Below, in pieces: positions 1 through 36,559 of a stretch of 36,559 nt of DNA; positions within the stretch are counted from its first letter, which is position 1, and every line of letters begins with the position of its first letter. Below the pieces are notes generated by a model. That model made no database searches and was not told the origin of the DNA. It saw only the letters and a list, made by a program, of their open reading frames with translations. The translations under genes and the position numbers were made by a program. Source of the DNA: a virus (lineage: Duplodnaviria > Heunggongvirae > Uroviricota > Caudoviricetes); IMG/VR virus record IMGVR_UViG_2724679237_000007, positions 1 to 36,559 of that record; one strand, 5' to 3'.

Positions 1-1170
1 TTGGCACTGAGTGACACTAAACTGCGTAGTCTCCATGGCAAGCCATATTCCGGCCCGGCGGAAATCACCGACGGTGACGGACTAAGCGCGCGGGTTACCC
101 CTACCGGCACTATCTCTTTTCAGTATCGTTACCGCTGGAACGGTAAGCCAGTGCGCCTTACCGTTGGGCGTTACCCATCAACAACCCTTAAAGAAGCCCG
201 TGTGGTCGTCGGTGAGATGCGCACATTGTACACGAAGGGGGTTAACCCAAAAAATTATTTTGCCCGTAGCGACGGCGAACTGACGTTAAAAGAATGTCTG
301 GAGCAGTGGTGGGACAAGTACGTCACTGACCTGAAACCCAATACGCAGACACTGTACAAATCGGTTGTGTACAACACCATGTACACACAGTTCGAGGACG
401 CGCCTGTAGCCAATATTCCTGTTTCGGCCTGGGTACGTTTTTTTGATAAGCAAGAAAGCCTCAATAAGAAAAAGGCGCGTGTGCTTCTCCTGCAGCTGCG
501 TTCCGTCGTTAACTGGTGTATAAGCCGCCAGCTAATCCCCTCATGTGAGCTGCTTAAACTCAGTGTAAAAAATGTTGGTAAAAAACCGGATGTTGGTAGC
601 CGGGTGCTTACTTACACTGAACTGGCAAAAGTATGGCTGGCGCTGGAAAACAATAAGATTGTTTCATCCAATAAAGTGCTGCACCAACTGCTGTTGCTAT
701 GGGGTGCCCGCTTGTCTGAATTGCGTCTTGCAACTGCCAGCGAGTTCAATATGGATGACCTTATATGGACCACTCCTGGGGACCATTCAAAAATGGGGAA
801 TGTTATTCGCCGGCCGGTATTCGACCAGGTTATGCCCTATGTTGAGAGGCTGCTGAATGTTGGTAACGATGTTCTTTTCCCCGGTCAGGAGATGGATAAA
901 GCGATCGACCGCTCATCGGCGAATCTGTACATGAAAAAGCTTAGGGAGAAGATTGATATACCTGAGTGGCGAACGCACGATTTCCGGCGCTCACTTGTAA
1001 CGAATTTATCTGCGGAGGGAGTAATGCCCCACGTCACCGAAAAGATGCTGGGGCATGAGCTGGGAGGGGTAATGGCGGTGTATAACAAACATGACTGGCT
1101 GCCGGAGCAGAAAGAGGCGTACGAGCTGTATGCTGATAAGATTTTTTGGCATGTCAAACAGCTTGATTAA
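1..1170 (+). CDS. int: Tyrosine recombinase, phage integrase (P4-like family)
   Basis: 389 aa ORF. N-terminus MALSDTKLRS...GDGLSARVTPTG matches the P4-type integrase arm-binding region; C-terminal HDFRRS...VYNKHDW carries His/Arg and Tyr catalytic residues. Begins at window position 1 with TTG, so the true start and att site may lie upstream. Confidence 0.85.
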   Translation: MALSDTKLRSLHGKPYSGPAEITDGDGLSARVTPTGTISFQYRYRWNGKPVRLTVGRYPSTTLKEARVVVGEMRTLYTKGVNPKNYFARSDGELTLKECLEQWWDKYVTDLKPNTQTLYKSVVYNTMYTQFEDAPVANIPVSAWVRFFDKQESLNKKKARVLLLQLRSVVNWCISRQLIPSCELLKLSVKNVGKKPDVGSRVLTYTELAKVWLALENNKIVSSNKVLHQLLLLWGARLSELRLATASEFNMDDLIWTTPGDHSKMGNVIRRPVFDQVMPYVERLLNVGNDVLFPGQEMDKAIDRSSANLYMKKLREKIDIPEWRTHDFRRSLVTNLSAEGVMPHVTEKMLGHELGGVMAVYNKHDWLPEQKEAYELYADKIFWHVKQLD

Positions 1171-1336
1171 CACCTCCAGCGCTAATCCACTTTTCAACTG
1201 CCTGACGGCTGTACCTTGATGGGTGAGTGAGTACCGGCTCCGGAAAGCCGTGTTTCTTACGAAGGTTATACAGTGCGGTTCGTTTTTTCTGAAGTAACTC
1301 AGAAATTTCTCTCTCAGTCATAAAGTCAGTAATCAT
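1154..1336 (-). CDS. AlpA/excisionase-family HTH protein (putative Xis or regulator)
   Basis: 60 aa from the internal ATG (cat at 1334-1336) with an upstream GAGAGG RBS. Sequence MITDFMTEREISELL...LYNLRKKHGFPEPV...VEKWI fits the AlpA/Xis pattern. Start overlaps the helicase stop (ATGA) and the 3' end overlaps int convergently by 17 bp. The rest of the 233 aa track ORF is an alternate frame of the helicase. Confidence 0.6.
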   Translation of the reverse strand: MITDFMTEREISELLQKKRTALYNLRKKHGFPEPVLTHPSRYSRQAVEKWISAGGVNQAV

Positions 1337-2733
1337 AGTATACCTCTCTTTTTCATTGCACCGAGCAGGATGTCCTGCACTGTTCGTTTTGAGTTGCGCC
1401 GTTCCATCACCATGTCGTCCATAGTGTCGGCAGCGATGATGTGGTGAATGAACACCGGGCGGTTGTGTCCGGCCTGGATCTGCCGGGTTGGCCCGATGCG
1501 TTCGATAATTTGTTGGTACTGCTCCAGATCCCACCAGTGCGAGAAAAACACCAGTATGTTGCCGCCGTCCTGCATGTTCAGACCGTGGCCTGCACTGGCA
1601 GGGTGCGCGAACAGCACCGGGATTTTTCCGGTGTTCCAGTCGCGCAGCGTCTGCGGATACTGGCCAAGGTGTCGACCACGCGGGAATGCTTTTAGCAGTC
1701 GTTCGAGGTCGTGCTTCCAGTGGTATGCAACAAGCACCGGCGCGCCAGCAGCTTCGGTCAGTATGCTGTCCAGCGCCTGCAGCTTCGCGTCGTGCAGTTC
1801 TGACCAGTTCCCGGCATCGTCGGTGTACACCGCGCCGCTGGCGATTTGCAGACACTTCGCCGTCTTTGCCGCGGCGTTCGGCGCTTCGATGCCCTCGCCG
1901 TTGAGTTCGAGGAACATTTCTTTTTCCATTTCGCGATACTGCTGGCGCGTCTTCGGTGGCATGTCTACGCGGATCACGTTATGGATTGGCTCCTTGATAT
2001 CGAACCAGTCGGCGGCGTCCAGTGAGATAGTGACGTCGGCCAGCGCCCGCTGTATCTCGTCCTGTGAGTGAGCGAACGGCTCCAGCTTCGTCCAGCTCTG
2101 CCCCGGAAACTGTATCGAGTTGAACCAGCGGGAAGTAAACGCGCCCCAGGTGCGACCCAATCGCTGCCCCTGATCGACAAACCACGCCTGCCCCCACAAA
2201 TCCACCAGGCCGTTTGGCGCTGGCGTGCCGGTGAGATTCACCCAGCGCCGGGCGTACTTATGCGCCACTTTGCCCAGTGCCGCTGCACGCTTGCCACCCC
2301 CGCGCAGCCGGAAGGATTTTAGCCGGGTGCTTTCGTCGGGGATAACGGTACCGAACGGCCAGCGGCCGCCCAGCTCTTCCACCAGCCAGACCAGATTGTC
2401 GTAGTTGATGGTGAACACGCTGGCGTTGCTGTTCGCCAGCGCCGCAGCACGTGCCTTAGCGTTACCGACAATCGGCTGCACCTCGATATTGCGCAGATGC
2501 CCCCACTTTACCGCTTCATCAGGCCATGTGCTGGCAGCCACGCGCAGCGGCGCGAGAACCAGCGCGGGCTGTGTCTCCGCTCCCGCCATGAAGAGGTCTT
2601 CCAGCGTGGTGAGCGTCGCCACGGTTTTACCCATGCCCATGCCCGCCCAGATGTTGCAGCGGTGAATGTCGATTTCGTGGTTGATGATGAGGTCCTGGTA
2701 AGGGCGGGGAATAAAGATTTTAGATGAGGTCAT
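1333..2733 (-). CDS. SNF2/DEAD-like phage helicase
   Basis: 466 aa with Walker A GMGMGKT near the N-terminus and helicase C-terminal region; start overlaps the methyltransferase stop by 14 nt. Confidence 0.8.
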   Translation of the reverse strand: MTSSKIFIPRPYQDLIINHEIDIHRCNIWAGMGMGKTVATLTTLEDLFMAGAETQPALVLAPLRVAASTWPDEAVKWGHLRNIEVQPIVGNAKARAAALANSNASVFTINYDNLVWLVEELGGRWPFGTVIPDESTRLKSFRLRGGGKRAAALGKVAHKYARRWVNLTGTPAPNGLVDLWGQAWFVDQGQRLGRTWGAFTSRWFNSIQFPGQSWTKLEPFAHSQDEIQRALADVTISLDAADWFDIKEPIHNVIRVDMPPKTRQQYREMEKEMFLELNGEGIEAPNAAAKTAKCLQIASGAVYTDDAGNWSELHDAKLQALDSILTEAAGAPVLVAYHWKHDLERLLKAFPRGRHLGQYPQTLRDWNTGKIPVLFAHPASAGHGLNMQDGGNILVFFSHWWDLEQYQQIIERIGPTRQIQAGHNRPVFIHHIIAADTMDDMVMERRNSKRTVQDILLGAMKKRGIL

Positions 2734-3769
2734 ATCCTGCGCATTCCATAAACGAGCGGATGAATGTAGCGGCAGCTGGCGCGACTATCGCGTTGCCGTA
2801 GGCGCGCAGTCGTCCCACTCTGCTGGTAATCCCATGAGCCAGCGGGAATGTGCCGGGTTCAACTGGCCGCCAGCGACCATCCCGGCAGAGGAGCCAGTCA
2901 GCATCATCCCAGCTGCCGCTAATCGTATTGGGCCACAGATTCTCGCTGCGCCGCCGAGAGTCGTTCCCCGTTCGGTATGATTGGCTGCGGCTCCCTCTCC
3001 CCGAACCCGGTTGTTGTCGATCGTCGTCACCGTCGGCCATCCACTCAGGCAGGCATAATCCTGTAAGTTCGGTTGTCGGCCCGCTAAGGTTTCCAGACCG
3101 CGCTTTGTCTCCGGCTGTGGATTGGTGTTGCAGGTTGGCGTGTACCATCCCGCCAGGTGGGCAAAGTCCCTCAGGGAGCTGTGCAAGGGGTTGCCGGATG
3201 GTCGACGATCTCCAGACATTTTCCTCAATGCTATTGAGGCGCTTCCGCCACCACTGTGATCGGTCGCCGCTGGAGTCGGCCACCCAATAAGCTCTGTCTC
3301 GGATATGCGGGGCACCGACGCCCGCAGCCGGAAACGGGACAAGCCCAAAGGCGTAGTCCACTGCTTCCACGTCAGTTTGTACAAGATCGAACCAGGCATT
3401 GACTCCCGCAACCTGTTCGCCAAATACCAGCTCAGGGCGTCGCTCGCTGATGAGGTGGAAGAAGGCTGGCCAAAGGTGCCGCTCGTCAGCAAACCCATTT
3501 CCTTTGCCTGCCGCGCTGAAAGGCTGGCAGGGGCAGGAGCCTGTCCAGACCGGGCGAGCGTCGGGCCATCCTGCCAGACGCAGGGCGTAAGACCAGACGC
3601 CGATCCCGGCGAAGAAATGGCACTGTGTAAAGCCTCGCAAGTCGTCTGGTGCGACATCCTCGATACTCCTCTCGTCAACTTCACCAGGGGCGATATGTCC
3701 CGCGGCAATAAGGTTACGCAGCCATTGCGCTGCGTTCGGGTCTATTTCGTTGTACCAGGCTCCCCGCAC
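2720..3769 (-). CDS. DNA (cytosine-5)-methyltransferase
   Basis: 349 aa with FAGIGV (motif I, FxGxG) and PCQPFSAAG (motif IV, catalytic Cys). No cognate restriction endonuclease is visible nearby. Confidence 0.8.
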
Positions 3770-4050
3770 AATATTCCCTCCATATTTTTGCTATCCAGCA
3801 CCACCACGGTAAAGCCCAGCGCTCGCAGCCGTTCGTGCTCGCGCAGCTGGTCGGCGCGTGCGGGTTTGCCGGGGGCTTTACATTCGACAAAAACGATACG
3901 ACCACCAGGTAGCAGCACGATGCGATCGGGAACTGAACGGCGGCCAGGCGACACGAACTTTAAGGCAACCCCGCCAGCCTTTTTCACCTCGGCGACGAGG
4001 TACTTTTCGATTAGGCTTTCACGTTCGTAGGTCATCACCAGATGCCCCAC
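3742..4050 (-). CDS. VRR-NUC domain nuclease
   Basis: 102 aa; PDRIVLLPGGRIVFVECKAPGK matches the VRR-NUC (PD-(D/E)xK) core; co-directional with helicase and methyltransferase. Confidence 0.75.
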   Translation of the reverse strand: MGHLVMTYERESLIEKYLVAEVKKAGGVALKFVSPGRRSVPDRIVLLPGGRIVFVECKAPGKPARADQLREHERLRALGFTVVVLDSKNMEGILCGEPGTTK

Positions 4051-4821: not shown

Positions 4822-5583
4822 TTAAGAGGAAGCGTTAGCTATTTGAGCTTGTGTAAATTCAAAACCTGAATGCTGTAACCGTTGCACCAGTCGAGGAACA
4901 GTTTCTCGTACATGGTCGTTGAAGTTCAGATATAAAATTCCGTTAGCATCAGAAGGTTGTTCTAAATGTTGTTTCTGCAAAATAGCTACGTTACTGCGCC
5001 CTAAGGACGAAAGAAGCATACCCATCTCGAGCACAACATTCTGTCTTGCACGAGGCTGGATTTCAGCTTCACCGGCGCGCTTTGAGTACCCCATATCGTC
5101 AGGTGTGAGAAGCACAATCCCGAATCGGGTAGCTGTTTGCCCCTGACCGATTTCACGTTCCAGCTCTTCAATAATTGTGAGCCCAGTCCCGCCAGTATTC
5201 TGCAAAATGAAATGGTCTGGCAACCCGAGTTTATGGAGTATTAGCTCAAGTTGTTCCTTTGCCGCATGATCATGGCCGTGAACAATGAAAATCTTTTTTG
5301 GAATCTCAGCAGGTTGTTCAACAGATTGAGGTGCCGCTGCGGGTGGCGTTCCTAAATGGGCCATTATTGCAGATTCAACATTGGGGCGTTCTTGAGGGTT
5401 ACCCTGAAGCTGAATAGTACGGGTAGCGTAAAGGTTAACAATTACACCATTCGCTAAACGATAGCAGTCACAAGCCCCACGCTGTTCATGGTCAAAATTG
5501 GTGAACCCGCACTCCCTTAAAAAGTCAGGAAATGATTCTCTTGGGTGTGGATAGGTGATCGGCATTTCAGTTAGTTCCTGCAT
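4822..5583 (-). CDS. TIR-like (Rossmann, nucleotide-binding) domain protein with an uncharacterised N-terminal domain; candidate defense effector
   Basis: 253 aa. C-terminal half KKIFIVHGHDHAAKEQLELILHKLGL...GIVLLTPDDMGY...ARQNVVLEMGMLL matches the prokaryotic TIR-like / SLOG-type pattern (vFIvHGhd...LTPDD). N-terminal ~80 aa has no family I recognise, followed by a Pro/Ala linker. Clearly lower GC than flanking genes. Confidence 0.6.
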   Translation of the reverse strand: MQELTEMPITYPHPRESFPDFLRECGFTNFDHEQRGACDCYRLANGVIVNLYATRTIQLQGNPQERPNVESAIMAHLGTPPAAAPQSVEQPAEIPKKIFIVHGHDHAAKEQLELILHKLGLPDHFILQNTGGTGLTIIEELEREIGQGQTATRFGIVLLTPDDMGYSKRAGEAEIQPRARQNVVLEMGMLLSSLGRSNVAILQKQHLEQPSDANGILYLNFNDHVRETVPRLVQRLQHSGFEFTQAQIANASS

Positions 5584-5647: not shown

Positions 5648-7711
5648 TCAATCTTTTCTGTAGTGGTACGCCTCGAAGCCGCCAGCGTTCAGCGGGATGT
5701 CGGGCGCCCATTCGGGGTTTGTGGAGAGCAGCGCGGAAAGCGCCGTATCGTTGAAATCGTCGGTGTCCGGCGCTTCGGTGATCACCTCATCGTGTACCGT
5801 CAGCACAATGCTGTAACCGGCATCCTCGATCAGCGGCATGTTCCCGGCCAGAACGTCGCGGGCGGCCGCCTGGGTGACGTTTTCCGCGAGCTTGCCGGAG
5901 TAGGTTTTAAGCCGTTGCCATTTGCGCGAGTAGGAATTAACGCCCCGGTAGGTGATGTCGCCGTCCTCGATCGTCGGTGACGGATAACAGACCGCGCGCC
6001 CGGACGGCAACTGGATGCGCAGCCAGGCACCATCGCGCCGGACTTTCAGATAACCACAACACAGGGTTCTTTTCGGGGTTGCAATGGCGGCGCGAACGGT
6101 GCGCTCAATCTCGTGCCAGAAATCGCAGGTAGCTGGGTGCGCCCGGCGCCACAGGCGCTTTAGCGAGTCACAAGCGATAAATACGCGCTCCGACAGTCCG
6201 TAGGTTACTTTGCGTTTGACCGATTCGTCATACCAGCTTTTCGCCTCGTGGATCACCTCACGGGGGATATTCGGCAGCGCGGCGTTCGCCAGTTCGTTGA
6301 GGTCGAGGCCGTAAACAAGGGCGAAGGTCAGGAATGCCGCGACGCCTCCGCCATATCCTAACCCGAGTTCCATTACTTTGCCGATCTGACGCTGGTATTT
6401 ATCAACATCGTCCGGCGAGATATTGAAGGCACGGGCATAGGCCAGTTTATACAAGTCCGGGCCGGTGCCCTCGTCGTACTCACGGAACGCGTCCAGCTTC
6501 CACTGTTCACCCGCCAGCCACGCCAGCATTCGCCCTTCGATATTTGACAGATCGCTAACCACCAGCTTTTTGCTTTCCGGCGCCATGATGCAGCCGCGTA
6601 ACGCTGAACTGGTCAGTTCCATGATGTTATTGAACAACAGATCGGCACATCCGGCTTTCAGGGCGTCGATACCGAAGTCTATTTGCTCCTGCGGCAGCGT
6701 TGGCCGACTGAGGTTTTGCGGCTGAAACAGCCGGCCCGCCCAGCGCCCTGTTCGTGATGCCCCGCAAAATTGCAGCGTACCGCGCAGGCGCCCGTCGTGG
6801 CTGACGCCTTTTATCAGCGTTTTGTATTTGCTGGTGCTGGTCATACTGGCCTGTAATCGGATCGCCAGCAGTTCTTTGACCGCCGGGGGTAAGTCCGGGT
6901 CGGCAATGCGGCGTTCGAGCGTCGATTTCTGCATGTCCGGCAATATCACGCCGTAGGATTCGACGATGTGTTTTAGCATGGCGTCGCGCTGTGTGGCCGC
7001 CTGGACTTCGCCGCCGGTCATTGCCTGCGTGCGTTTTGCCAGGCGCTTTTGCTCCTGGTCTACCGCTTCGACGGCCGCGTGCGCGAGCTGCACATCCATG
7101 CAGGCGCCACGGTCGTTAATCCGCTGGTCGCGGTGCCAGTGCGCCAGCTCGGCTCCCTGATAGTTCCACTTTGGCAGGCGCTTATGCACTTCGCGCATGG
7201 CCTCGATATCCAGCCCGGCGTATGCAACGAACCGCCGCCACTCTTCCGGGTGCGTTTTGCTGGTGGCCCGGCGCAGTTTGCTGTTTTTCGGTCGAGGCTT
7301 GCAGAACAGCTGGATTAGCGCCGTACCCCCTTTATCCTTCGCTTTGTCCTGCGGAACGCCCAGCACTTCACACAACGCGCCTAATGCGCCGGGGAGTCCG
7401 TGCGCCAGCGCCTGCACCATAGTATCGCGCCAGCGGGTGATATCGGGTGCCAGTTCCGGCATTGCATGGCGCAGCACCGTGCGGTCGAAATGTGAATTGT
7501 GCGCCCATACTTCTACCTCCGGTTTTTTGAGCGCGAGACGCAACTCCAGAGGTATTTTTTGGGTTTCGGTTAAGTCCCACACTTGTACGGGGGCGTCGTC
7601 GAGCGCCCAGGCGAACAGCATAACCTCGGCACCCTCTGAATACGCATGGGTCCCGTTTTTTATCGGCACTTCGGAGAAAGTTTCGAGGTCGAGATAAAGG
7701 CGTTTAGACAT
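5648..7711 (-). CDS. Family A DNA polymerase with 3'-5' exonuclease (T7 gp5-like)
   Basis: YLDLETFS (Exo I), [14 protein letters not shown] (motif A), [16 protein letters not shown] (motif B), VLTVHDEV (motif C). ATG at 7709-7711 has a GAGGTGG RBS; the track ORF starts at an upstream GTG (7726). Confidence 0.85.
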
Positions 7712-8201
7712 GGGGCCACCTCGCACCGGAAATAATCATACCCACCGCACGTCGTGATATTCCGTACCTACGACCAAGTTCAGTTTGTGAGACTGAATCG
7801 CCCAGCGTTTTTATCTCCCGAGCGATGGCCTCTGTAATTTTTGCCATTCCATTCTTTTCACCTCTATTATCGGGAAAAGTCAGGCGACCATTGCGAGCGA
7901 CTCGCTTCATATTTTCCTGACGGTCAACCCATTCAAGATTGCCGACGGTATTGTTTCTCTTGTCGCCATCGAGATGGTCAACTTCTGGTTTATTTTTGGC
8001 CGTCGGAAGAAAAGCAGTTGCGACTAGTCGATGTACAAATATGTTGCGAGAGATGCCGTTATCGCATAGCTTCGCATGCAGATACCCGTCTCTGTGTTTT
8101 GACGGTTTGAGAATGTGGTGGTGGATATTTCTAACTCTTCCCAAATTGCTGACCTCGTAACGGTCTTCAAATCCGGGTGCAGGTTTCCAAATTTCGGGCA
8201 T
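7704..8201 (-). CDS. HNH homing-type endonuclease (NUMOD4/HNH_3-like)
   Basis: [15 protein letters not shown]-terminal motif and [14 protein letters not shown] core. Start chosen at ATG 8199-8201 (GAGGA RBS, 6 nt spacing) rather than the track start at 8246. Confidence 0.8.
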
Positions 8202-8392
8202 AAATAGTCCTCGCGGGTGCTTTGCGAAAAGGGATGCTCTTTGCAAAACACCCGGCGCGTGGCCGGGTGGGTGGGTGTTTACGCTGTGGCTTCTTCGTCA
8301 GAAGGGAGGCCGATCATCTCGTTGAGCGTTTCGCGGCGTATCGCGGGCGGCAGCGGGCGGGCATAGCACCGTGAGGGACGCGCTTTCCGGGA

Positions 8393-8425
8393 ATAAAAAA
8401 GCCCGGCAGTGGAGTCTGACCGGGC
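8393..8425 (-). terminator. Rho-independent terminator (minus strand)
   Basis: Minus strand reads GCCCGGTCAG-actcca-CTGCCGGGC followed by TTTTTTATTC; about 9 bp stem. Confidence 0.6.
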
Positions 8426-8451
8426 AACAACTACACACAGCAATGGATTAT

Positions 8452-8547
8452 TCAGGGGGATGCGGTTAAAGCCGCGAGGTATTCCTCGAAACTTAAGGCT
8501 TCTTCGCCTTCATCCAGGCTATCGAAGTACGCTTCGTAATCATCCAT
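8452..8547 (-). CDS. Candidate 31-aa acidic micro-protein
   Basis: MDDYEAYFDSLDEGEEALSFEEYLAALTASP; GAGGAA RBS 5 nt upstream of the ATG; the terminator at 8393..8425 follows. Below the 60 aa track cutoff. Speculative. Confidence 0.3.
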   Translation of the reverse strand: MDDYEAYFDSLDEGEEALSFEEYLAALTASP

Positions 8548-8605
8548 CGTCTTTCCTCATTCAGTTCACTTTGGCGGTGCGATGGCCGGTGCTGATCCCC
8601 GGTAT

Positions 8606-8671
8606 GGCGTTCTGCGGGATTCGAACCCGCGTTTTCCGTCGGATCGTCCTGGGTCGCTAGACGAAGAACGC
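8606..8671 (-). ncRNA. tRNA-Glu-like element lacking a canonical anticodon arm (degenerate tRNA or tRNA-like RNA)
   Basis: Minus strand: GCGTTCT-TCGTCTAGCGACCCAGGAC-GATCCGACGGAAAAC-GCGGGTTCGAATCCCGC-AGAACGC-C. Perfect T-arm (GCGGG/TTCGAAT/CCCGC), 7-bp acceptor pairing, and a D-arm near-identical to E. coli tRNA-Glu (TTCGTCTAGAGGCCCAGGAC), but only ~15 nt where the 17-nt anticodon stem-loop plus variable loop should be. Confidence 0.45.
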
Positions 8672-9070
8672 CCGGCTACATGCATTTAGCCGCGCATCAG
8701 CCTGCGCATTCACCGCACCCCAAAGGGAACTTCGCCACACTTTCGCAGTGGCCGCGCTCATGCCCTTGAGTCGTCTGTCGCTCAGTCGCCGCTAATAACC
8801 GGTGCTCGTCTGGCTTGCGAACTGCTTTACCGGCACACCATCTTCATCGTTAACCCTCACCAGCGTGCGCTGCGGTTCGTACCCGCATCTGGCTACCCTC
8901 GTCGGGTATTCGGGGCAGCATTACAATTGCTGCACTGCCTTTCGGCTGCGGTCTGACCGCTTTACTTGTGCATGGTGGTTTCCTCCTTTGGTTGATTTTT
9001 TACTGACCCGTATTGCCGGCATCCTGCCTCGCCACGGTCCCGACGCATGGTTTTAAGTCGCGCCGTTCGA

Positions 9071-9110
9071 CTTGAATTCTAAATTGATTTTTGAATTCAA
9101 AAATGAATTT
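9071..9110. promoter_or_regulatory. Operator-like palindromic repeats (TTGAATTC / GAATTCAA), putative leftward promoter region
   Basis: cTTGAATTCtaaattgatttTTGAATTCAAaaatGAATTt; same half-site family as the cI-cro intergenic palindrome. Confidence 0.4.
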
Positions 9111-25782: not shown

Positions 25783-28277
25783 TGCCAGTTGTACCTACAG
25801 TCGCCGGGCGACAGGTTCAGAGCCACGGCGTATCGACGGGTGGTTTTAATGCGTATTCCGGCGCAGGAATTAGCGATGTACTGGCCGATGCTGCGGGTAA
25901 ATACGCTGGTGTATTTGCGGAGGCCAAACAGCGGGCAAATGTCGCTCTGGCGCAGGATGCATCGTTGCAGCTCAGCCAGCGCGCCAGCGTGATGATGAAT
26001 GACCCAGAAAAAGGCCTGTTAAACCTGCAGGGCAAAAACGCTATCGGCAAAGGTCAGGAGTACACGGCTATGTTTGACAGCGCCGCCGGGGAGATTGCCG
26101 GCACGCTGCCGGATGATGTCGCCCGCAATATGTTCCTGCAGCATGCGCAACAGCAGCGTATCCAGTTCACCACGCAGGCAGGACGGCATGAAATCGGCCA
26201 GATTAACGCGTATGAGGAAGGGCAATTCCAGGCGACGCTGGCGAATAACGCGCAGAACGCGGCGGCGCTACACGGCGATAATGCCGGATATATTTCGGCC
26301 AATCAGCAGACGTTCCAGCAGATAGAACAGTTTGGCGCAGCACGCGGCTGGAGTGATGAGCAGATCACCGCAAAAAAAATGGAGTTTAAAGAAAAAACCG
26401 CCATGGCTACTGCAGCCAATGCTATAGGCGCTAACTATATGGCCGTTCGCATGCAAAATGGGGAACCGGCTGATAATTTTGGTTCTCAGCGGGTGTCTGG
26501 CTCTGGCAGCGCAGAACCGTGTGGTATCTGGAACAATAACCCTGGAAATTTGCGGACATCAAAAAATCCCTGGGACGGGCAGACGGGTGATGACGGCGAG
26601 TTCGTTACATTCGCCACTCCGGAACACGGGATACGTGCTTTGGGTAAAAACCTGCTGTCTTACCAGCGGCAGGGATTTGTAACACCCAGGCAGATTATTT
26701 CCCGCTGGGCTCCTCCCGAAGATGGCAACGATACGGAGGCTTATATTGAAAAGGTATCATCGGCGCTGGGTGTATCAGACAATGAAAAGCTAAACTTGTC
26801 GAACATCAAAACACTTTCAACGGTGAGTAAAGCCATTATGGCTACGGAGAATAACGGAGAGGTTGGCTATTCCGACCAACAAATCAGTACCGGGTTACAG
26901 GCTGCCCTAGGCGCAACGCAGCTACCTGCATCACCTGACGCGCCAAAACGCTATACCGGCTCCGCCTGGTTTGACGCTCTGAATACCGCAGACCAGGCGA
27001 AAGTGATGCGTCAGTTAGATGCACTGGATGAGCAGTCGCGGGTTAAGTATCGCTCGGAGCTGACCGGACGTGTGAAAGATGCCAGCGCGGCGTATACGCG
27101 CGGCGTCGATTTTCCCAATCCGCCATCGCAGCAGGATTTTATCCGGGCATATGGTTACAATGATGGTTTGGTGCAGCACGCTGATTTCGAAAGGCTGCAA
27201 CAGCTTGGATCGGATATCGGCGTGGTAAAATCCCTGCCTGTTGCTTCTCAACTGGCACTGCTGGAAGAAAGGAAACCAATCCCAGGTGACGGTTATGCGG
27301 CTGGTGTCTCCCGGTATGAGTCGCTGGCGCAGGCAATTCAGCATGTGAATGCCGTTCGGCATGATGATCCTGTCCGTTATGCCCAGGAGCAAAATATTGC
27401 GTCGCCGCTGGATATCAGATCCCCGCAGTCGTTAACCCGCGGTCTGGAGCAGCGCGCTGATATGGCTCCTGATCTGGTGGTTCAGTACCAGACGCCGCTG
27501 GCGGTATTCAGCAAGGAAGAAGCCGTCCAGCTTACTTCCCTGCTGAAAGATGCTCCGTCAGGCCAGAAGGTGGCCTATCTTGATGCGATGCGTCAGTCAA
27601 TTAAAGATCCCGTCGTTTATAAAGCCGCGTTGCAGCAGGTGACATCCGGAAGCCCTTCATTTGCTGTCGCAGGGCTGATAATGGATAAGCCCGGTAATGT
27701 GGTGACGGAACGAAATACCTTTTCTGACAATATCTCCGTTACACCACAGGACGCAGCGCAAATCATTCTTGAAGGCAATCCGGCACGCAAAGGCGCTGAT
27801 GGTGCAAAGGGGATAGCCATGCCTAAGGACAGCGATATGCGGACGGCGTTTTCTGAGTACGTAGGTGATGCGTTCGCCGGTGATACCCAGGGCGCTGAAA
27901 GTGCATACCAGGTCGCGCTGGATTACTACGCGGGGAAAAGCCAACGCGCCGGGGATATATCTGGCAGCTATAACGACAGGCTATTTAAAGAGGCAATGTC
28001 GGTAGCCACTGGAGGTATCTACGATTACCAGGGTATGGGTAAAATCATGTTGCCGTGGGGTATGAGTCCCGATCGGTTTGATCGCGAGATAAGCAAGGCA
28101 TGGATGTCTCAGGTGGTAGATAAGGGCGTCAGGGTTGACCCGATTAACTACTCTCTGCAGAGCTTCGGCGACAGCCGTTATCTTGTACGCTACGGGACAG
28201 GCTATCTTATCGATAATGATGGAAATCCTGTCGTGCTGGACATAACCGAAAATAAAATCCGGGACATTCCGAAATGA
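25782..28277 (+). CDS. Internal virion (ejection) protein C-like, with a conserved Cys/His central domain
   Basis: 831 aa; parallels T7 gp15; central region aa ~235-330 (PCGIWNNNPGNL...ATPEHGIRALG) looks like a globular, possibly enzymatic domain. Confidence 0.5.
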   Translation: MPVVPTVAGRQVQSHGVSTGGFNAYSGAGISDVLADAAGKYAGVFAEAKQRANVALAQDASLQLSQRASVMMNDPEKGLLNLQGKNAIGKGQEYTAMFDSAAGEIAGTLPDDVARNMFLQHAQQQRIQFTTQAGRHEIGQINAYEEGQFQATLANNAQNAAALHGDNAGYISANQQTFQQIEQFGAARGWSDEQITAKKMEFKEKTAMATAANAIGANYMAVRMQNGEPADNFGSQRVSGSGSAEPCGIWNNNPGNLRTSKNPWDGQTGDDGEFVTFATPEHGIRALGKNLLSYQRQGFVTPRQIISRWAPPEDGNDTEAYIEKVSSALGVSDNEKLNLSNIKTLSTVSKAIMATENNGEVGYSDQQISTGLQAALGATQLPASPDAPKRYTGSAWFDALNTADQAKVMRQLDALDEQSRVKYRSELTGRVKDASAAYTRGVDFPNPPSQQDFIRAYGYNDGLVQHADFERLQQLGSDIGVVKSLPVASQLALLEERKPIPGDGYAAGVSRYESLAQAIQHVNAVRHDDPVRYAQEQNIASPLDIRSPQSLTRGLEQRADMAPDLVVQYQTPLAVFSKEEAVQLTSLLKDAPSGQKVAYLDAMRQSIKDPVVYKAALQQVTSGSPSFAVAGLIMDKPGNVVTERNTFSDNISVTPQDAAQIILEGNPARKGADGAKGIAMPKDSDMRTAFSEYVGDAFAGDTQGAESAYQVALDYYAGKSQRAGDISGSYNDRLFKEAMSVATGGIYDYQGMGKIMLPWGMSPDRFDREISKAWMSQVVDKGVRVDPINYSLQSFGDSRYLVRYGTGYLIDNDGNPVVLDITENKIRDIPK

Positions 28278-30079
28278 GTTATTTTGGCCTTGATCCAACA
28301 TCAGAGCGAAACCAGCTTTCGCTGGCCGTCGAAAACCCGGTTCTCCCTCAGGAAGCCGGGTTTTTTGATAACGTGCTGTTGTCTCCCCTTGAAGGTCTGG
28401 TTAATGGCGCTATCAATAAGCCCGCGCTCAGTCTGGCGATTGGTCTTGATGATACTCTGTCTCCATATGCCAGTATGCTGGATGATGCCGTTGGCACCAG
28501 CACAGAACAGTGGTTTCATGACCAAGTCGCCGTTGAATTAGCCAGCGTAAGAGCCGCGACACCCAACCCTGCAACCACAGGTACCGCCGGGCAGATACTG
28601 AACAATATGTTTGATATGGGGGGGCAATTCGCTATTGGCTCCCGTCTCGGTGGTCCGGTGGCTGGCGCGGTGACGGTGAGCACGATGCAGGGCGGCGCGG
28701 ATTATGCCGAATCGCGTGCGCGGGGGGTCGATCCGGCTACCGCCCTGCAAAAAGCTACGGTGACAGGGCTGACGGCGGGCGCGGGTACGTTAATCCCCGC
28801 GTCTATTGGACTGCGCTCCGTGGGGGCTGCGTCCGGCGTTCTGGAGAAAGCAATGGCGTTTGGCGGAGACGTTGCCTATTCCGCCGGCAGCAACATGGCG
28901 ATGGGAATGGCACAGCGCGGCTTTACGCACGATATTCTCTCCGGTGCGGGCTATGAGGAAATGGCGGGGCAGTATCATGCACTGGACAGCCAGGCGCTGG
29001 CGGTTGATGCGGTGCTGGGCGTTGCCTTTGGCGGTGCCGGACATTTCCTGCATACAGGCACTGGCGATAGAGCACCAGCGCCGGAAGTCAGCCAGGTGGA
29101 TATTGATGCTGCGTTAACCACTAACTCAGCGCTGCATGTGGAAACCGACGCTGCGCCGGGTATCCCGGCAGACCCAATTAGCCGGACGGAACATGTTGCC
29201 TCCGTCAATAAGGCGCTGGCGGATATCAGCGCCGGACGTCCTGTCGATGTTTCCGGGATACTCAGCCATGCGGATTTTATGCCCAAAGATATGAATGACT
29301 TTATCCGCGATGTGTCGGTGCAGGCCAGTGAGTTTTATCCTGATCTTCCACTTTTTTACCTGGACGACGGTGCAGCCATAACCGGAAAGACAGTCAGCGA
29401 TCATATCGCGCTGCTTCAGCCCGACGCCGCAGCGCTAATGGATCGTGGCACCCGCGAATCCCTTACAGGGGAAATCCACCGTAGCGAAAACCGCCTGGAG
29501 ACATTATCCGGCGAGCTTACAGCAGTGAAAAACGAGCCTCCGAAAGGCAGCGGAAAGGCGCTTGCACAGGCCCGCGCTGCGCACGTTGACAGGGTGAAAT
29601 CCCTGAACCGGGATATTGATGCGCTGAAAAGCGATATTGCCGCAAAAAAAACAGCGCTGGCCGATCACTCTAAGGGTGGAAAGAATTTTGAGGCCAAAGC
29701 TGATATATCCCGCCTGCGTCAGGGGATTGTACCTGAGCGCCTGAAACAGTCTGTTACCCGTCAGAGTGCGGAGGAACTGGGACAGAACATAGATATCCCC
29801 CCAAAATCCGCACCAGTTGAACCGGAAGTTTCGCCCGGCAAGACCAGCGCGGAAAAAAGTGCTGATGAAAGTGCGGCGACAGTGGACGGTGATGCGCAAC
29901 TGGCAAGCCATGCTTTGCGTACCAATCCAGACATGGTGATCCAGACGGAGGATGCTGGCGGGAATATGGTGGAGGTCAGGGCAGCGGATGTTATGGCCGA
30001 TGCGGATGCGGTGATCAGGCAGGCAGAGCAGGACGCAAGCCTGTTTGATGCCGCTGTAGCGTGTTTTCTTGGGGGATGA
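28274..30079 (+). CDS. Internal virion (ejection) protein
   Basis: 601 aa, Ala/Gly-rich, coiled-coil C-terminal segment; with the next ORF comparable to T7 gp16. Confidence 0.5.
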   Translation: MSYFGLDPTSERNQLSLAVENPVLPQEAGFFDNVLLSPLEGLVNGAINKPALSLAIGLDDTLSPYASMLDDAVGTSTEQWFHDQVAVELASVRAATPNPATTGTAGQILNNMFDMGGQFAIGSRLGGPVAGAVTVSTMQGGADYAESRARGVDPATALQKATVTGLTAGAGTLIPASIGLRSVGAASGVLEKAMAFGGDVAYSAGSNMAMGMAQRGFTHDILSGAGYEEMAGQYHALDSQALAVDAVLGVAFGGAGHFLHTGTGDRAPAPEVSQVDIDAALTTNSALHVETDAAPGIPADPISRTEHVASVNKALADISAGRPVDVSGILSHADFMPKDMNDFIRDVSVQASEFYPDLPLFYLDDGAAITGKTVSDHIALLQPDAAALMDRGTRESLTGEIHRSENRLETLSGELTAVKNEPPKGSGKALAQARAAHVDRVKSLNRDIDALKSDIAAKKTALADHSKGGKNFEAKADISRLRQGIVPERLKQSVTRQSAEELGQNIDIPPKSAPVEPEVSPGKTSAEKSADESAATVDGDAQLASHALRTNPDMVIQTEDAGGNMVEVRAADVMADADAVIRQAEQDASLFDAAVACFLGG

Positions 30080-32580: not shown

Positions 32581-32859
32581 TTATTAACCCGCTTTAATTT
32601 ATTGCCGACTGAAAACTACGTCCTGTGGGCGTGGTCATCAACAGGCTTTGGCTCTGCCTTATTGTCTTTGGATTTAAATTTACAGAATAGGCAGAGACTT
32701 CTTTTTAAGTTTTTTTAGTACGCCCCTTTGGGGCGAAACCAATGCCGCCTTCTTAGAAGGCGGATTTTTACTTCTCCTGCATTTAGCACAATTTTAATTG
32801 CCACCAACTACCGCCCGCCATTCTGGCGCTGGCGGCGCTTTGTCATAAAGAGAGACGCA

Positions 32860-35466
32860 ATGACAGTATCATCCGAAGTAAACCACAATGATTACCAAGG
32901 TAACGGGACGACTACCGTTTTTCCGTACCAGTTTCGTATCTTCAAAAAAACTGACCTGGTAGTAACCACCTCTGATCTTAATGACACTCTGACTACGCTG
33001 CGCCTGGATACTGATTATACAGTAACGGGGGCTGGTGGGTACAACGGCGGGACGGTTGTTCTTCCGTCACCACTGTCTTCTGGCTGGAAAATATCCGTGG
33101 CCCGCGTTCTTTCGATTACGCAGGAAACCGATCTGCGCAACCAGGGTAAATTTTTTGCAGAAGTGCATGAGAACGCATTCGATAAACTGACAATGCTGAT
33201 TCAGCAAGGACTGCGCTGGATTGGCCTGGCATTGTGCAAGCCGTCAACTATTGCTAATTATTATGATGCACAGGGTAATTATATCCGCAACCTGCATGAT
33301 CCGGTACAGCCACAGGACGTGGCCACGAAGAACTATGTGGATAATACAGTCGCTACGTCTACTGCTGGCTGGCATGCTGGTGATGAAGTGCTTGACCAGA
33401 AAATAGATGCAAACTTTGCTCACACGCTACGGGTTCCTGAAAGCAGCATTAATATGCTGGGGAGTGTATCAGATAGAGCAAATAAGCTGCTTGCGTTTAA
33501 CAGTAGCGGCCAGCCGATTTCTGTATTGCCGGAAAGCGGAAGTGCTACGGATGTGATGATTGAACTGGCTGCGGATGATGGCGCATCTAAAATTGGTGGT
33601 GCATTCTACGCCGATATCAGGGCCTACAACGCTGGCGGAAATCAAATCAAATGTCTGGGACGTACAAATATTTTTGACGGTGCAGATGGTGTGTTTATTC
33701 TTGACCCCTCTGATGTTGTATCACAGGATAACGACGGAACAGTTCTTGTAGATACAAATGGCGGTCGTTGGAAAAGGGTGTTTGATGGTCCGTTGAATGG
33801 GTTATGGTTTGGGATGGACAGGGGGGGGGCAAAAAGTTCCGGGGATGCTTTTAATAAAATATTGTCTGTTTCTGGAACTTTTGGGCAAATATTTATCCCT
33901 GAAGGGGTTTATTTATTGCCAGGTGGACACGATGTTCAAGAAGGGCAAAATATTTTATTTGACAATGTAACTTTAAAATCAGATGGAAATGCTGCAACAA
34001 CTAGTTTAATTAATATTAACGCTGATGATGTTTCAATTGGTGGCAGCTTGATAATTGATGGGGAAGTGAGAGATCCAGGAGAGAACCCTCCACGCATTGC
34101 TATTGGGCTAAGAGTTGGAGAGCAAAGACAAATTGAACGCTTCAATTGCGCCGGGGTTAAATCTTACGGTGTCGTGTATGGTGTTTTTATTACAGGCGCG
34201 AAAGATTCAACAATAAAAAATTGTCTGTCATACCGGAACTCAGACGGTTTTAGGTTAGCTTCCGTAACTTCAGGAGTTGCAAATTCATTCGGATGCGATA
34301 ATGTCAGGATAATTGATTGCATCTCCTTGGAAAACGGCATGCCATATATGCCTGTTACAGGAACAGGATCGACCGGGGGATATGCTGGATTTAAAGTTAC
34401 TGACATACCAATTTCTGATATATATTTCATAAATTGCATTGCTCGTGGTAACTGTGGGTTTGGTTTTAATATTCATGGCCATCCGTTCACTTCAATACCA
34501 AGTGGGTTTGAAATGAAAGGTTTGCATTTCATAAACTGCATATCAGATGGTAATAACATACCAGAATTTAATCTACCATCTGGATTTGTTACTGGAGCTG
34601 GAAATTGTAGTGGTTTCTATATTGGAGCGGTTGGTGTAGCAATCAAAAATGTATTTATTGATGGGTGCACTATCAAAGGACAATCTGGAGAAGCCATATA
34701 CTTCAGGGCTTTAAATGATAGCGGTTCTAATTTGAATCTAATTGAAAACATATTAGTTTCAAATTGCAGGATTGAAGGTGCTCCGAGATCACTAAATAGC
34801 AGCGTCAGAACTTCTAACTCAGCTCTTTATTTAACAGGCACGAGAAACTTGCTCTCTCAATCAAATGTTATCACTGGAGTTGAGTATCTTTATGATTTTG
34901 TTTATTATATTAATAACTCTAGGAGTGGAGTTAAGATTAAAGATGATCAGTATGACACCTCTCCTAATTTAATTTACGCTAAATCTTCAAAATTAGGAGG
35001 TGTTGTTGGGCGTATTGATATATCTGGTATTCAAGCAAGAAAGGGTGGGAAATTAAATAGTGCAACAGCCAATGTAATGATTAGGGTTGTCGATTTTGAG
35101 GAGATAATAATAGAAGGCAATAGTATCAATGATGTATCAGAAACACAATCATCTACTTTGGTAAATGCGATATTGCAACAAAATACAACTACTGATAGTA
35201 AATCAATCAAGATAATCAATAATTCATTTTCATGTGCAAATTCTAGTGTTCGAATTGGGGCACCAATAGAGATTAATTCAATAGGTGGATCAAAACTATT
35301 TAGTGGTAACACTATAACGCATTCAATAGTTGGTATTTCAGGGAACAACACTGAAAACGCAATAATCATTGCGAATCATTTTGATGCCGGAACAGTAGCT
35401 ACAAAAATATTAAATTTCCCAGCAAGCACAATTAAAAAAGCAAACATTGGACTTCCTGACAGTTAA
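32860..35466 (+). CDS. Tailspike / tail fibre with a conserved N-terminal particle-binding domain and a beta-helix (depolymerase-like) C-terminal domain
   Basis: Start at ATG 32860 (AAAGAGAGA RBS). N-terminus MTVSSEVNHNDYQGNGTTTVFPYQFRIFKKTDLVV...NYVDN is the widespread enterobacterial podovirus spike anchor; the C-terminal ~560 aa has repetitive Gly/Asn-rich beta-helix character and markedly lower GC. Confidence 0.8.
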   Translation: MTVSSEVNHNDYQGNGTTTVFPYQFRIFKKTDLVVTTSDLNDTLTTLRLDTDYTVTGAGGYNGGTVVLPSPLSSGWKISVARVLSITQETDLRNQGKFFAEVHENAFDKLTMLIQQGLRWIGLALCKPSTIANYYDAQGNYIRNLHDPVQPQDVATKNYVDNTVATSTAGWHAGDEVLDQKIDANFAHTLRVPESSINMLGSVSDRANKLLAFNSSGQPISVLPESGSATDVMIELAADDGASKIGGAFYADIRAYNAGGNQIKCLGRTNIFDGADGVFILDPSDVVSQDNDGTVLVDTNGGRWKRVFDGPLNGLWFGMDRGGAKSSGDAFNKILSVSGTFGQIFIPEGVYLLPGGHDVQEGQNILFDNVTLKSDGNAATTSLININADDVSIGGSLIIDGEVRDPGENPPRIAIGLRVGEQRQIERFNCAGVKSYGVVYGVFITGAKDSTIKNCLSYRNSDGFRLASVTSGVANSFGCDNVRIIDCISLENGMPYMPVTGTGSTGGYAGFKVTDIPISDIYFINCIARGNCGFGFNIHGHPFTSIPSGFEMKGLHFINCISDGNNIPEFNLPSGFVTGAGNCSGFYIGAVGVAIKNVFIDGCTIKGQSGEAIYFRALNDSGSNLNLIENILVSNCRIEGAPRSLNSSVRTSNSALYLTGTRNLLSQSNVITGVEYLYDFVYYINNSRSGVKIKDDQYDTSPNLIYAKSSKLGGVVGRIDISGIQARKGGKLNSATANVMIRVVDFEEIIIEGNSINDVSETQSSTLVNAILQQNTTTDSKSIKIINNSFSCANSSVRIGAPIEINSIGGSKLFSGNTITHSIVGISGNNTENAIIIANHFDAGTVATKILNFPASTIKKANIGLPDS
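33821..33829 (+). repeat. G9 homopolymer inside the tailspike ORF
   Basis: ggatggacaGGGGGGGGGcaaaaag, coding DRGGAK; lies at the GC-composition junction of the gene. Confidence 0.9.
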
Positions 35467-35473
35467 GTTACTA

Positions 35474-35524
35474 CAAGCCCCACTCACACAACGAATTAGT
35501 GGGTGGGGCTTGTACTTATTTTTT
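35474..35524. terminator. Bidirectional terminator between convergent tailspike and acyltransferase genes
   Basis: CAAGCCCCACTCAC-acaacgaatta-GTGGGTGGGGCTTG followed by tacttaTTTTTT; overlaps the acyltransferase stop. Confidence 0.6.
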
Positions 35525-36559
35525 AACTTTCGATAATAACCTTGCTAAAAGTAATGGGATTGCGATTGCAGAAAATGGATATAATAATTGGGTGTAAAAA
35601 GTATGGTAATGAACTAGAGTTTTAGTATTTCTCATGTCCCATAATCCAAATAACGAAAAAATCATGTCGAGGAATACAAATATACATAAATGATATGACA
35701 TTATTCCTCGCGAATACTTTCCTGCATCCTTTAAAAAAGTTGATAAATAAGTTCCATTAAATACAGAGGAAACAAAAAAAATTAGTAGTATGCATAGTAG
35801 AGCCATAATGGTTGTAACAACAAATCCTGATGGATATGCACTCCATGACATTATCATTGGTTTTGCTAGGCCAGATAAATATAATGATAAAACCAAGATA
35901 AATAAAATTAAAGCGATAATTTTATTTTTAAAATGTAAGATAAATGAATTGATGCAGCACCCGATCAGCATAAACATGGTGGCATATAGAACTTGAGACG
36001 TTAAGTTATATATCTGTTCACCTGTGATTTTATATATATCGGCCATGATGGTTGTAGATACGTATCCAAAACATATTGATATTGCAATTATTGTAATTTT
36101 TTGTGTTTTAGTATCTTTTATTTTTAATGACAATGAAATAATTATAGTTGATATAATGTTTGACAATAGGTATGCAAAAAGAAACCATCCAACTAAAAAC
36201 AATTCATTGTTATGGAAGTTGTTTTTGAATATTGATATTATTGTTTCAATGGGGTGTTCTGAAAATGGTAACCCAAACCCTATTCCATATATCTTAGATA
36301 TGCCAACGGAAACCATGCCGATTATTAAATACGTAACAATAAAATACATGATTATTTTTGAAAGTGTTTTTTTTATGGTTTTGAATGGGGTGATTCCATC
36401 AATAAAAAAACCACCCACAAAAAAGAATAAAGGCATATGATAAAAGTAAGGTTTGGTAATACCAACTAATATCCCCCAACTATGGCCGATAACCACAGCG
36501 ATAATCCCAATTCCTTTTACAATATACAAAGTGTCACTTTGCTCTTTAGTCAGTGTCAC
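35516..36559 (-). CDS. Acyltransferase family 3 integral membrane protein (O-antigen/polysaccharide acetyltransferase-like); N-terminus at or just beyond the window edge
   Basis: 347 aa, about 10 predicted TM segments; N-terminal VKGIGIIAVVIGHS matches the acyltransferase-3 signature; very low GC (roughly 28%); convergent with the tailspike. Confidence 0.75.
   Translation of the reverse strand: MTLTKEQSDTLYIVKGIGIIAVVIGHSWGILVGITKPYFYHMPLFFFVGGFFIDGITPFKTIKKTLSKIIMYFIVTYLIIGMVSVGISKIYGIGFGLPFSEHPIETIISIFKNNFHNNELFLVGWFLFAYLLSNIISTIIISLSLKIKDTKTQKITIIAISICFGYVSTTIMADIYKITGEQIYNLTSQVLYATMFMLIGCCINSFILHFKNKIIALILFILVLSLYLSGLAKPMIMSWSAYPSGFVVTTIMALLCILLIFFVSSVFNGTYLSTFLKDAGKYSRGIMSYHLCIFVFLDMIFSLFGLWDMRNTKTLVHYHTFYTQLLYPFSAIAIPLLLARLLSKVKK

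Follow-up and report, generated by a model that had tools for sequence, protein, structure and literature searches.

An epsilon15-type virion module and lambdoid control genes in a probable mosaic prophage of Escherichia albertii

The stretch of DNA analysed here, positions 1 to 36,559 of IMG/VR virus record IMGVR_UViG_2724679237_000007 (36,559 nucleotides (nt) in all; hereafter, the window), had been described in an original prediction as a temperate T7-like podovirus that lacks a phage RNA polymerase (RNAP) and is run by a lambda-like CI/Cro/Q circuit. The most likely explanation of its gene content, to which we assign a probability of roughly 85%, is that it represents a mosaic temperate podovirus prophage, in which a virion half of the epsilon15 type is combined with control genes in the style of phages lambda and HK022 and with a borrowed replication module. 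Such mosaicism is commonplace among phages, and the window does not represent a T7 phage turned temperate. All of the modules have known relatives, and the mosaic variant itself is new within the epsilon15 structural group.

The virion half is of the epsilon15 type

From the small terminase subunit (TerS) to the N-terminus of the tailspike, 19 consecutive genes are colinear with those of phages epsilon15 and SPN1S at 31–82% amino acid (aa) identity (Table 1), and all virion open reading frames (ORFs) are full length relative to epsilon15. In a megablast search, three phages of the genus Uetakevirus (SPN1S, epsilon15 and ZX5) matched the large terminase subunit (TerL) and the tail genes at 72–75% nucleotide identity. 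The Pfam families matched by the head genes were PF12236, PF20911 GP7, PF21190, PF21628 and PF25181; the GP7 capsid is of the HK97 fold. Uetakeviruses (epsilon15, SPN1S and the phiV10-type vB_EcoP_ZX5) possess the same GP7 capsid, gp10, Bbp16- and Bbp19-like proteins, tail tubes A and B and internal proteins, their internal terminators stand at the same two places, and an O-antigen-modifying gene follows their spike on the opposite strand, as a likely one does in the window. They are also temperate and have no RNAP. Among the internal proteins of the window, the 831-aa one contains a transglycosylase-like region and the 832-aa one resembles epsilon15 gp17 (IVP-D). Close homologues of the nozzle (about 80% identity) are found in genomes of E. 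coli, Klebsiella aerogenes, Salmonella and Dickeya, and its family comprises 18,226 representatives at 50% clustering. The solved structures of Carin-1, a marine phage of Cobetia marina (PDB 8ck0/8ck1), gave matches for the portal (E = 4e-165), a 'Connector Protein' (8ck1_E, 5e-29) and a 'Tail Nozzle' (8ck1_A, 1e-203); the comparison with Carin-1 is limited to structural proteins.

The rest of the genome departs from this pattern. Unlike the window, Uetakevirus early regions carry RecT/RecE and primosomal or replication-initiator genes and have no PolA, VapE or PF06530 Q; their lysis cassette stands after the conversion genes, whereas the lysis genes of the window lie between Q and the terminase. 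The epsilon15 integrase is only 26% identical in amino acid sequence to that of the window, and its attachment (att) site differs. Furthermore, of the 80 contigs in IMG/VR whose TerL is closest to that of the window, none carried the CI, Cro, VapE, Q, PolA or lysis set of the window within 10 kb upstream. The BLASTN-based similarity to epsilon15, SPN1S and ZX5 is 21–27% over the whole genome and 0–3% over the early half. By the convention of the International Committee on Taxonomy of Viruses, a genus corresponds to about 70% nucleotide similarity over the genome, a level that is not reached here with respect to Uetakevirus. It is conceivable, at somewhat less than even odds, that with this prophage a hitherto undescribed lineage of genus rank has been recognised for the first time, one that combines an epsilon15-type particle with a PolA/VapE replisome, a put element on the left and Q on the right.

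The control circuit is lambdoid in layout

By sequence, the control region reads as lambdoid: an S24-type CI repressor gene stands between two operator clusters, with Cro divergent from cI and Q upstream of the holin, endolysin and terminase genes. The operator motif, ATTCA-N4-TGAAT, occurs at seven sites in the window if up to one mismatch is allowed, where 1.2 are expected by chance, and none of 100 shuffled sequences reached this number. All seven sites fall into two clusters on either side of cI, which we call the left and right operators (OL and OR). Phages lambda and HK022 likewise have an S24 CI between OL and OR, a divergent Cro and a PF06530 Q ahead of the lysis and late genes. They differ from the window in having replication genes of the O/P type in place of PolA, VapE and SNF2, and the virion of the window is that of a podovirus. 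No N-like ORF is present between cI and the HNH gene, where the minus-strand ORFs are a 54-aa remnant of Nmad5 and shorter frames. No N or Nun gene was recognised, and the position of N and nut is taken by an RNA element related to the put sites of HK022.

This element (positions 9001–9074) is 81% identical over 74 nt to HK022 28237–28310 (E = 4e-13), a segment that we identified as putL by its match to the published numbering. In that numbering, A3–G7 pair with C15–U19, and AACCAT stands at +23 to +28 (PMC9378689). The conserved −10-like AACCAT is present in the put of the window, which begins about 30 nt past the −10 hexamer of a promoter-like sequence (PL-like) overlapped by OL. A two-stem fold is supported by 20 aligned put-like sequences (few and related) taken from IMG/VR, from HK022 and from the window itself: 96.4% of the alignment cells are paired, as compared to at most 42% in slid controls, and four pairs show compensatory double changes. 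A covariance model scored the put of the window at 88 bits, which is partly circular as this was a training sequence, and the untrained HK022 putR at 30.5 bits. The subtype to which the element belongs (type-2) travels with PolA, SNF2, VapE and Q genes in at least nine IMG/VR loci. HK022 has two put elements, whereas the window has one, in the left arm. By analogy, the element would give read-through that depends on the zinc-binding domain of the RNAP beta-prime subunit.

These features suggest the following circuit. CI of the S24 type would bind the ATTCA-N4-TGAAT operators at OL and OR and would presumably be cleaved after SOS induction, and all transcription would be carried out by the host RNA polymerase. 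The PL transcript would fold into an HK022-type put RNA and allow RNA polymerase to pass the leader terminator into the polymerase, helicase, nuclease and xis genes. The rightward early promoter (PR) would yield Cro, the VapE primase-helicase and Q, which in turn would let the late transcript extend over about 22 kb, past internal terminators (21328 and 32745), and so cover the genes for lysis, packaging and the virion. Promoter use, the activities of put and Q and inducibility are all predicted here. The original prediction of a temperate phage run by CI, Cro and Q is borne out by the Pfam matches of these three proteins and by the integrase and att sites; the put antiterminator RNA and the OL and OR sets were missing from it, as was a 5.2-kb deletion described below.

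The replication genes form a borrowed early module

As had been proposed, the replication genes are split by the CI/Cro switch, and their coordinates place PolA leftward and the primase rightward of it. The further claim that they mirror the T7 replication module did not hold. The family A polymerase has its phage relatives in eiAU, Jersey-like phages (Kagunavirus), Chi-like phages and staphylococcal Sa2 siphophages. In the PDB it has just weak matches to bacterial Pol I structures, limited to their motif-A region, and none to a T7 gp5 entry. The primase matches the VapE-like protein of PDB entry 7pds (E = 2.7e-26). Judged by these matches, PolA is a member of the eiAU/Jersey/Sa2 siphophage clade; the primase is of the VapE type and not a gp4-like Toprim-DnaB fusion. 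Pairwise searches of the prophage and its flanks with T7 gp2.5, gp4 and gp5 gave no matches.

The closest counterpart of this region was found in the E. coli prophage vB_EcoM-606R2, in which SNF2, the nuclease, the TIR protein and PolA are 85–93% identical to those of the window (92% for the TIR protein), CI and Cro are 53–62% identical, and the replication genes are likewise split across the switch. Unlike those of the window, the late genes of vB_EcoM-606R2, 611R5 and 689R2 are of the myovirus type, with baseplate J and tail fibres. The protein in the primase position and Q of 606R2-type prophages are also unlike those of the window, and the covariance model found no put in 606R2. In addition, E. 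coli chromosomes match about one quarter of the first 25 kb of the window at 83–84% nucleotide identity. The PolA/VapE/SNF2 set thus appears to be a mobile, widely circulating early module that also occurs in E. coli prophages. The TIR-domain protein inside the replication operon could be a phage-borne defence or counter-defence gene. The NUMOD4/HNH position is occupied by variants of 146 or 165 aa in sister prophages.

Boundaries and integration site

Exact protein matches place the window at positions 29172–65730 of contig BBVU01000003.1 (assembly GCA_001514885.1), and an identical nozzle protein carries the NCBI organism name Escherichia albertii. Both ends of the window fall at genes, the integrase start codon on the left and the start of the acyltransferase gene on the right. 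The 24-bp sequence TTATATCCATTTAACTAAGAGGAC is the sole direct repeat of at least 12 bp common to both 1.5-kb flanks; its copies lie 196–219 bp to the left and 653–676 bp to the right of the window. The repeat equals the first 24 nt of tRNA-Arg(CCT) argW, an intact copy of which adjoins the integrase. Past the repeats the chromosome continues with host genes, dsdC/dsdX/dsdA at one end and mlaA/fadL/fadI/fadJ at the other, and there is nothing phage-like immediately outside the window. Because the att repeats enclose the window and host genes lie beyond them, the window makes up nearly all of a prophage that is about 37.4 kb long and occupies the 5' end of argW in an E. albertii chromosome. The original prediction had proposed a search of the flanks for attL/attR and a tRNA target, and these are the 24-bp repeats and argW.

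The int-xis segment is 78.5% identical in nucleotide sequence to that of Stx1 phage AU5Stx1 (Traversvirus), and the 24-bp attP annotated in AU5Stx1 is the same sequence as the repeat found here; the remainder of the AU5Stx1 genome is unrelated to this prophage. The att core is at the 5' end of argW and not at its 3' end. We had considered such 5'-end integration unusual and dropped this point in view of the identical attP in AU5Stx1. The host argW promoter now points into the acyltransferase gene of the prophage, and the intact tRNA therefore needs a promoter supplied by the phage, for which TTGATG-18-TACTAT is a candidate. Two other assemblies (loci L001 and L004) have a P22-like prophage on the 3' side of the same argW.

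Points against the mosaic reading and the 5.2-kb deletion

Several results count against the interpretation given above. PR, the late promoter and a qut site were not located in a scan for consensus promoters. No spanin was identified, and no Rz/Rz1-type ORF is evident ahead of TerS (13774–14544). A second put (putR) was not found in the window with the covariance model filters either on or off. For tube A and the 831-, 601- and 832-aa proteins, homology to T7 is taken from the literature and from RefSeq notes on their epsilon15 orthologues, and an AlphaFold2 model of the nozzle, built on a 20-sequence alignment of about 80% identity, had a pLDDT of 41. Induction, particle formation and the activities of put and Q are predictions from sequence. 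Finally, this copy of the prophage may be defective and impaired in replication, because it has suffered a deletion of genes that its undeleted relatives keep.

The deletion was located by comparison with a sister prophage (locus L015) in assembly GCA_039862125.1, which is 99.97% identical across 15 kb and does not have it. In a megablast alignment, window 8347–23379 corresponds to L015 5391–20423 (99.97%) and window 8214–8361 to L015 1–149. Between the PL leader and the HNH gene, L015 has an additional 5.24 kb with ten genes that are absent from the window. These include a DUF2800/PD-(D/E)XK nuclease, an Enc34-type single-stranded DNA (ssDNA)-binding protein and most of Nmad5, whose C-terminal 54 aa persist at 8279–8443. 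The undeleted prophage would measure about 42.7 kb, and genomes of the epsilon15 type measure 38–42 kb.

Hence, one alternative is that the phage is the one described above and that this copy is defective, the loss of the ssDNA-binding protein, DUF2800 nuclease and genes next to them blocking lytic replication, so that the element persists solely as a lysogenic-conversion and immunity cassette. The deletion is mapped to a 15-bp overlap, and the lost genes are conserved in L001, L004, L015 and 606R2-type modules. However, PolA, the SNF2 helicase, the VRR-NUC nuclease and the VapE primase are still intact, the host single-stranded DNA-binding protein could replace the lost one, and the deleted form is seen in several sequencing runs with its late genes intact. 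Such a defect is a serious possibility, to which we nevertheless give clearly less than an even chance.

An improbable alternative is that the window is not one phage genome at all, but either a composite of two unrelated adjoining elements or a decayed cryptic remnant. The two halves do differ in their closest relatives, the deletion took ten early genes, and the early set is missing from all of the 80 nearest epsilon15-type TerL loci mentioned earlier. Yet the 37.4 kb contain a single integrase and are bounded by a single pair of att repeats, the Q–lysis–terminase–virion layout is continuous with short gaps, the virion ORFs have retained their full length, and an independent assembly without the deletion shows these junctions too, at 99.97% identity. 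The undeleted length, moreover, barely exceeds the epsilon15-type range.

Kinship with T7 is ancient and partial

None of the 17 T7 proteins used as queries gave a significant pairwise match to the window by tblastn or phmmer. The original prediction had found no single-subunit RNA polymerase in the window, which we confirmed, and it had named an RNAP gene just outside as a finding that would overturn it: in the prophage and in about 8.7–8.9 kb of each flank, tblastn with T7 gp1 returned only chance fragments (best E = 0.8, 21 aa). Furthermore, no large ORF matched a Pfam RNA_pol family, and every ORF longer than 600 aa was otherwise assigned.

At the level of protein families, a relationship emerges. 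PF12236 is matched by the portal at 579 bits and by T7 gp8 at 379 bits, and the PHROG matches of the two proteins are reciprocal (phrog_332/449). The nozzle matches the PHROG of T7 gp12 (phrog_457, E = 1e-10), and a 40-sequence nozzle profile aligned by hhalign with residues 350–466 of T7 gp12 (E = 7e-5); the family profile also matches a solved chain, 23sh_T 'nozzle gp13' (793 aa, E = 1e-5). The shared central domain of the nozzle is the one that Hardies et al. reported in epsilon15 gp12 (PMC4819975). The 154-aa protein falls in phrog_308 together with T7 gp13, the 181-aa protein matches PF24072 T7_gp14 at 27.9 bits (cutoff 27), and the N-termini of the spike and of T7 gp17 share phrog_1640/8460/27277, whereas the match of the spike to Pfam Phage_T7_tail (18 bits) is below the cutoff. 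For the capsid, decoration and scaffold-position proteins, Pfam and PHROGs gave no T7 signal and placed them in families other than those of T7; tube A and the proteins in the gp15 and gp16 positions had no T7 family match in either collection, and the terminase had none to T7 gp18/gp19 in pairwise searches. According to the RefSeq record of epsilon15, its gp11 matches T7 gp11 (tube A) in HHpred, and epsilon15 gp17 (IVP-D) has been assigned to the T7 gp16 family (PMC4819975). The kinship with T7 is real, ancient and partial: it extends to the portal and nozzle, to the proteins resembling gp13 and gp14 and to the N-terminus of the fibre. It had already been published for the epsilon15 group: T7, P22, N4, epsilon15 and others form one ancient tail homology group, with just the phi29-like phages outside, and the capsid and terminase of epsilon15 group with siphoviruses (PMC4819975).

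The genes listed in the original prediction (integrase, CI, Cro, Q, a terminase ahead of the portal, and the virion set) are all present at sensible coordinates. T7 has the same order of portal, scaffold-position gene, capsid, tube A, tube B, gp13, gp14, large internal proteins and fibre, and the likeness to the T7 virion proposed there stands as synteny of the tail and internal core with T7 gp8 and gp11–gp17. Membership in the T7 family does not stand: there is no pairwise match to T7, the module is epsilon15-like, and the capsid, decoration, scaffold-position and terminase proteins belong elsewhere. What had been taken for the scaffold is a homologue of epsilon15 gp6, which is annotated as a protease (phrog_458). 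The structural proteins had been expected not to cluster with a non-T7 lineage; the head shell and terminase do so, and the portal, tail and core do not. T7 (Autographiviridae) also differs in having its own RNAP and a lytic genome on one strand, as opposed to a temperate one with two divergent early operons and no RNAP, and its terminase is at a different genome position, whereas that of the window precedes the portal.

That the window belongs to the T7 lineage (Autographiviridae) or branched off from it, having lost its RNAP and gained lysogeny with a lambda-type switch, is therefore very improbable and already largely refuted: the portal-to-fibre order with its similar gene sizes, the family-level matches (portal, nozzle, gp13, gp14 and fibre N-terminus) and the presence of a family A polymerase and a primase speak for it, but not one T7 protein is matched by BLAST or phmmer, the capsid, scaffold-position and decoration proteins are of other families, the terminase has no match to T7 gp18/gp19, PolA and primase are of non-T7 types, the virion module is near to epsilon15, whose whole temperate group has no RNAP, and the T7/epsilon15 split is described as ancient within a tail group that takes in most podoviruses except the phi29-like ones (PMC4819975).

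Other features of the window

Coordinates are collected in Table 1.

Table 1. Features of the window, with position, strand and the basis of the assignment or a remark
Feature	Position	Strand	Basis or remark
Tyrosine integrase	1-1170	+	PF13356 + PF00589
Excisionase, 60 aa	1154-1336	-	Overlaps integrase end; weak HTH_17 match
SNF2 helicase	1333-2733	-	Pfam
C5 DNA methylase	2720-3769	-	Pfam
VRR-NUC-like nuclease	3742-4050	-	Pfam
Small ORFs	between VRR-NUC-like nuclease and TIR gene	-	Distal part of early-left operon
TIR-domain protein	4822-5583	-	PF10137 CAP12/Pycsar effector TIR, 108.6 bits
Family A DNA polymerase (PolA)	5648-7726	-	Pfam
NUMOD4/HNH_3 homing-endonuclease-like gene	7704-8246	-	Pfam; overlaps polymerase gene start
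Deletion junction	8347-8361		15-bp overlap; megablast against L015
Strong intrinsic terminator	8391-8425	-	Ahead of replication genes
PL leader, long non-coding	8391-9000	-	About 600 nt after put
31-aa acidic ORF (MDDYEAYFDSLDEGEE...)	8452-8547	-	Good ribosome-binding site; strong terminator follows
tRNA-like cloverleaf	8605-8671	-	Fold
Conserved 280-nt leader stretch	8691-8973	-	Comparison with lambdoid phages
HK022 putL-type antiterminator RNA	9001-9074	-	Sequence homology, covariance model, fold
OL, three ATTCA-N4-TGAAT sites	9083-9147		Motif scan; overlaps PL-like promoter
PL-like promoter, TTGACA-17-TAAATT	9134 to 9106	-	10/12 consensus; overlaps OL
Terminator after cI	9186-9164	-	Promoter/terminator scan; upstream of PL-like promoter
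CI repressor (helix-turn-helix + S24 autopeptidase, LexA-like)	9206-9883	-	PF00717, 61.9 bits; PF13443, 37.6 bits
OR, four ATTCA-N4-TGAAT sites	9907-9989		Between cI and cro
Cro	10014-10214	+	HTH_3
VapE-type primase/helicase	10218-12521	+	VapE-like_dom, 181 bits
Zinc-ribbon ORF	12680-12907	+	Early-right operon
Antiterminator Q	12957-13379	+	PF06530 Phage_antitermQ, 107.9 bits (cutoff 26)
Holin	13774-14148	+	phrog_126
M15 endolysin	14145-14531	+	PF13539
TerS	14544-15086	+	PF03592; 52-56% identical to epsilon15/SPN1S
TerL	15083-16591	+	phrog_2; 71-79% identical to epsilon15/SPN1S
gp3-like	16632-16838	+	Colinear with epsilon15
Portal	16850-18517	+	PF12236 (Head-tail_con), 579 bits
Bbp19-like	18514-18816	+	Pfam; BPP-1 family
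gp6-like scaffold/protease	18816-19523	+	epsilon15 gp6 homologue; annotated protease, phrog_458
Major capsid protein	19535-20524	+	PF20911 GP7, 484 bits
Bbp16-like cement	20545-20985	+	Pfam; BPP-1 family
gp9-like	20999-21319	+	Colinear with epsilon15
Internal terminator	21328-21343	+	Same place as in epsilon15
gp10-like decoration	21368-21685	+	Pfam Gp10-like
Tail tube A/adaptor (201 aa) and tail tube B/nozzle (827 aa)	21685-24773	+	73% and 82% identical to epsilon15 gp11, gp12
Internal (ejection) proteins: 154-aa gp13-like, 181-aa gp14-like, 831 aa, 601 aa, 832 aa	24773-32580	+	31-71% identity to epsilon15 gp13-gp17
Terminator before tailspike	32745-32763	+	Same place as in epsilon15
Tailspike (868 aa)	32860-35466	+	N-terminal 260 aa about 61% identical to epsilon15/SPN1S spikes
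Acyltransferase-3 membrane protein	35516-36559	-	PF01757 Acyl_transf_3, 46 bits

On the minus strand of 8362–9000, the PL leader contains no ORF longer than 44 aa, and both of its strands fold at a z-score of about −3. DNA that is 72% identical to its 280-nt stretch, and that bears no annotation, is present in the early-left regions of mEp213, mEp237, Stx2c phages and Hafnia phage yong1. The cloverleaf has an 8-bp acceptor-type stem, a D-like arm, a 3-bp stub that replaces the anticodon arm, and the canonical T-arm GCGGG-UUCGAAU-CCCGC. At 8605–8671, ARAGORN was negative and Rfam matched just a tmRNA T-arm, below threshold; the cloverleaf might be an RNase P/Z processing signal. Rfam at its gathering thresholds found nothing in the window. 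At relaxed thresholds it gave just this T-arm fragment and an RprA-like 3' end (32.8 bits, gathering score 70), both of which we hold as unproven. The latter coincides with the 5' flank of the terminator, AUUGCUGUGUGUAGU, which has the same sequence as the 3' seed region of the small RNA RprA, a likeness that may be due to chance. Taken together, the further RNA elements of the leader (the stretch conserved in lambdoid phages and the tRNA-like cloverleaf) could constitute a new regulatory or processing signal. The leader also contains a three-codon mini-ORF with a strong Shine-Dalgarno sequence.

ARAGORN found no tRNA within the window. Outside it, but inside the right end of the prophage, a T-arm-like sequence, GCGGGTTCAAGTCTC, lies about 430–500 bp past the right end of the window; ARAGORN called no tRNA there either, and the sequence may be a tRNA fragment left by an earlier integration event. 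The lysis cassette consists of the holin and M15 endolysin alone, unlike those of epsilon15 and SPN1S, which have a spanin.

The GC content drops to 33–38% across 34000–36559, which covers the C-terminus of the spike and the acyltransferase gene. The acyltransferase has the position and strand of the SPN1S O-antigen acetylase, yet no sequence similarity to it, and its product is likely to modify the O-antigen upon lysogenic conversion. The low-GC block is probably a recently acquired serotype-conversion moron. The exact tailspike protein is found on four E. albertii-type contigs.

Implications

Our result is mainly a correction. Phages of the epsilon15 group normally combine a T7-like virion with the lack of an RNAP, and the likeness to T7 reflects the ancient common ancestry of podovirus tails and not a recent loss of the polymerase. 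No long-standing question is opened by these results. The prophage exemplifies a clean modular exchange, in which a Uetakevirus-type virion is joined to a replication and regulation module that is otherwise seen with myovirus-type late genes. It also provides evidence that HK022-type put RNAs are standard in the PolA/VapE early module, beyond the classical lambdoid siphophages. For the host, the pair of spike and acyltransferase is likely to affect the O-antigen serotype of E. albertii.

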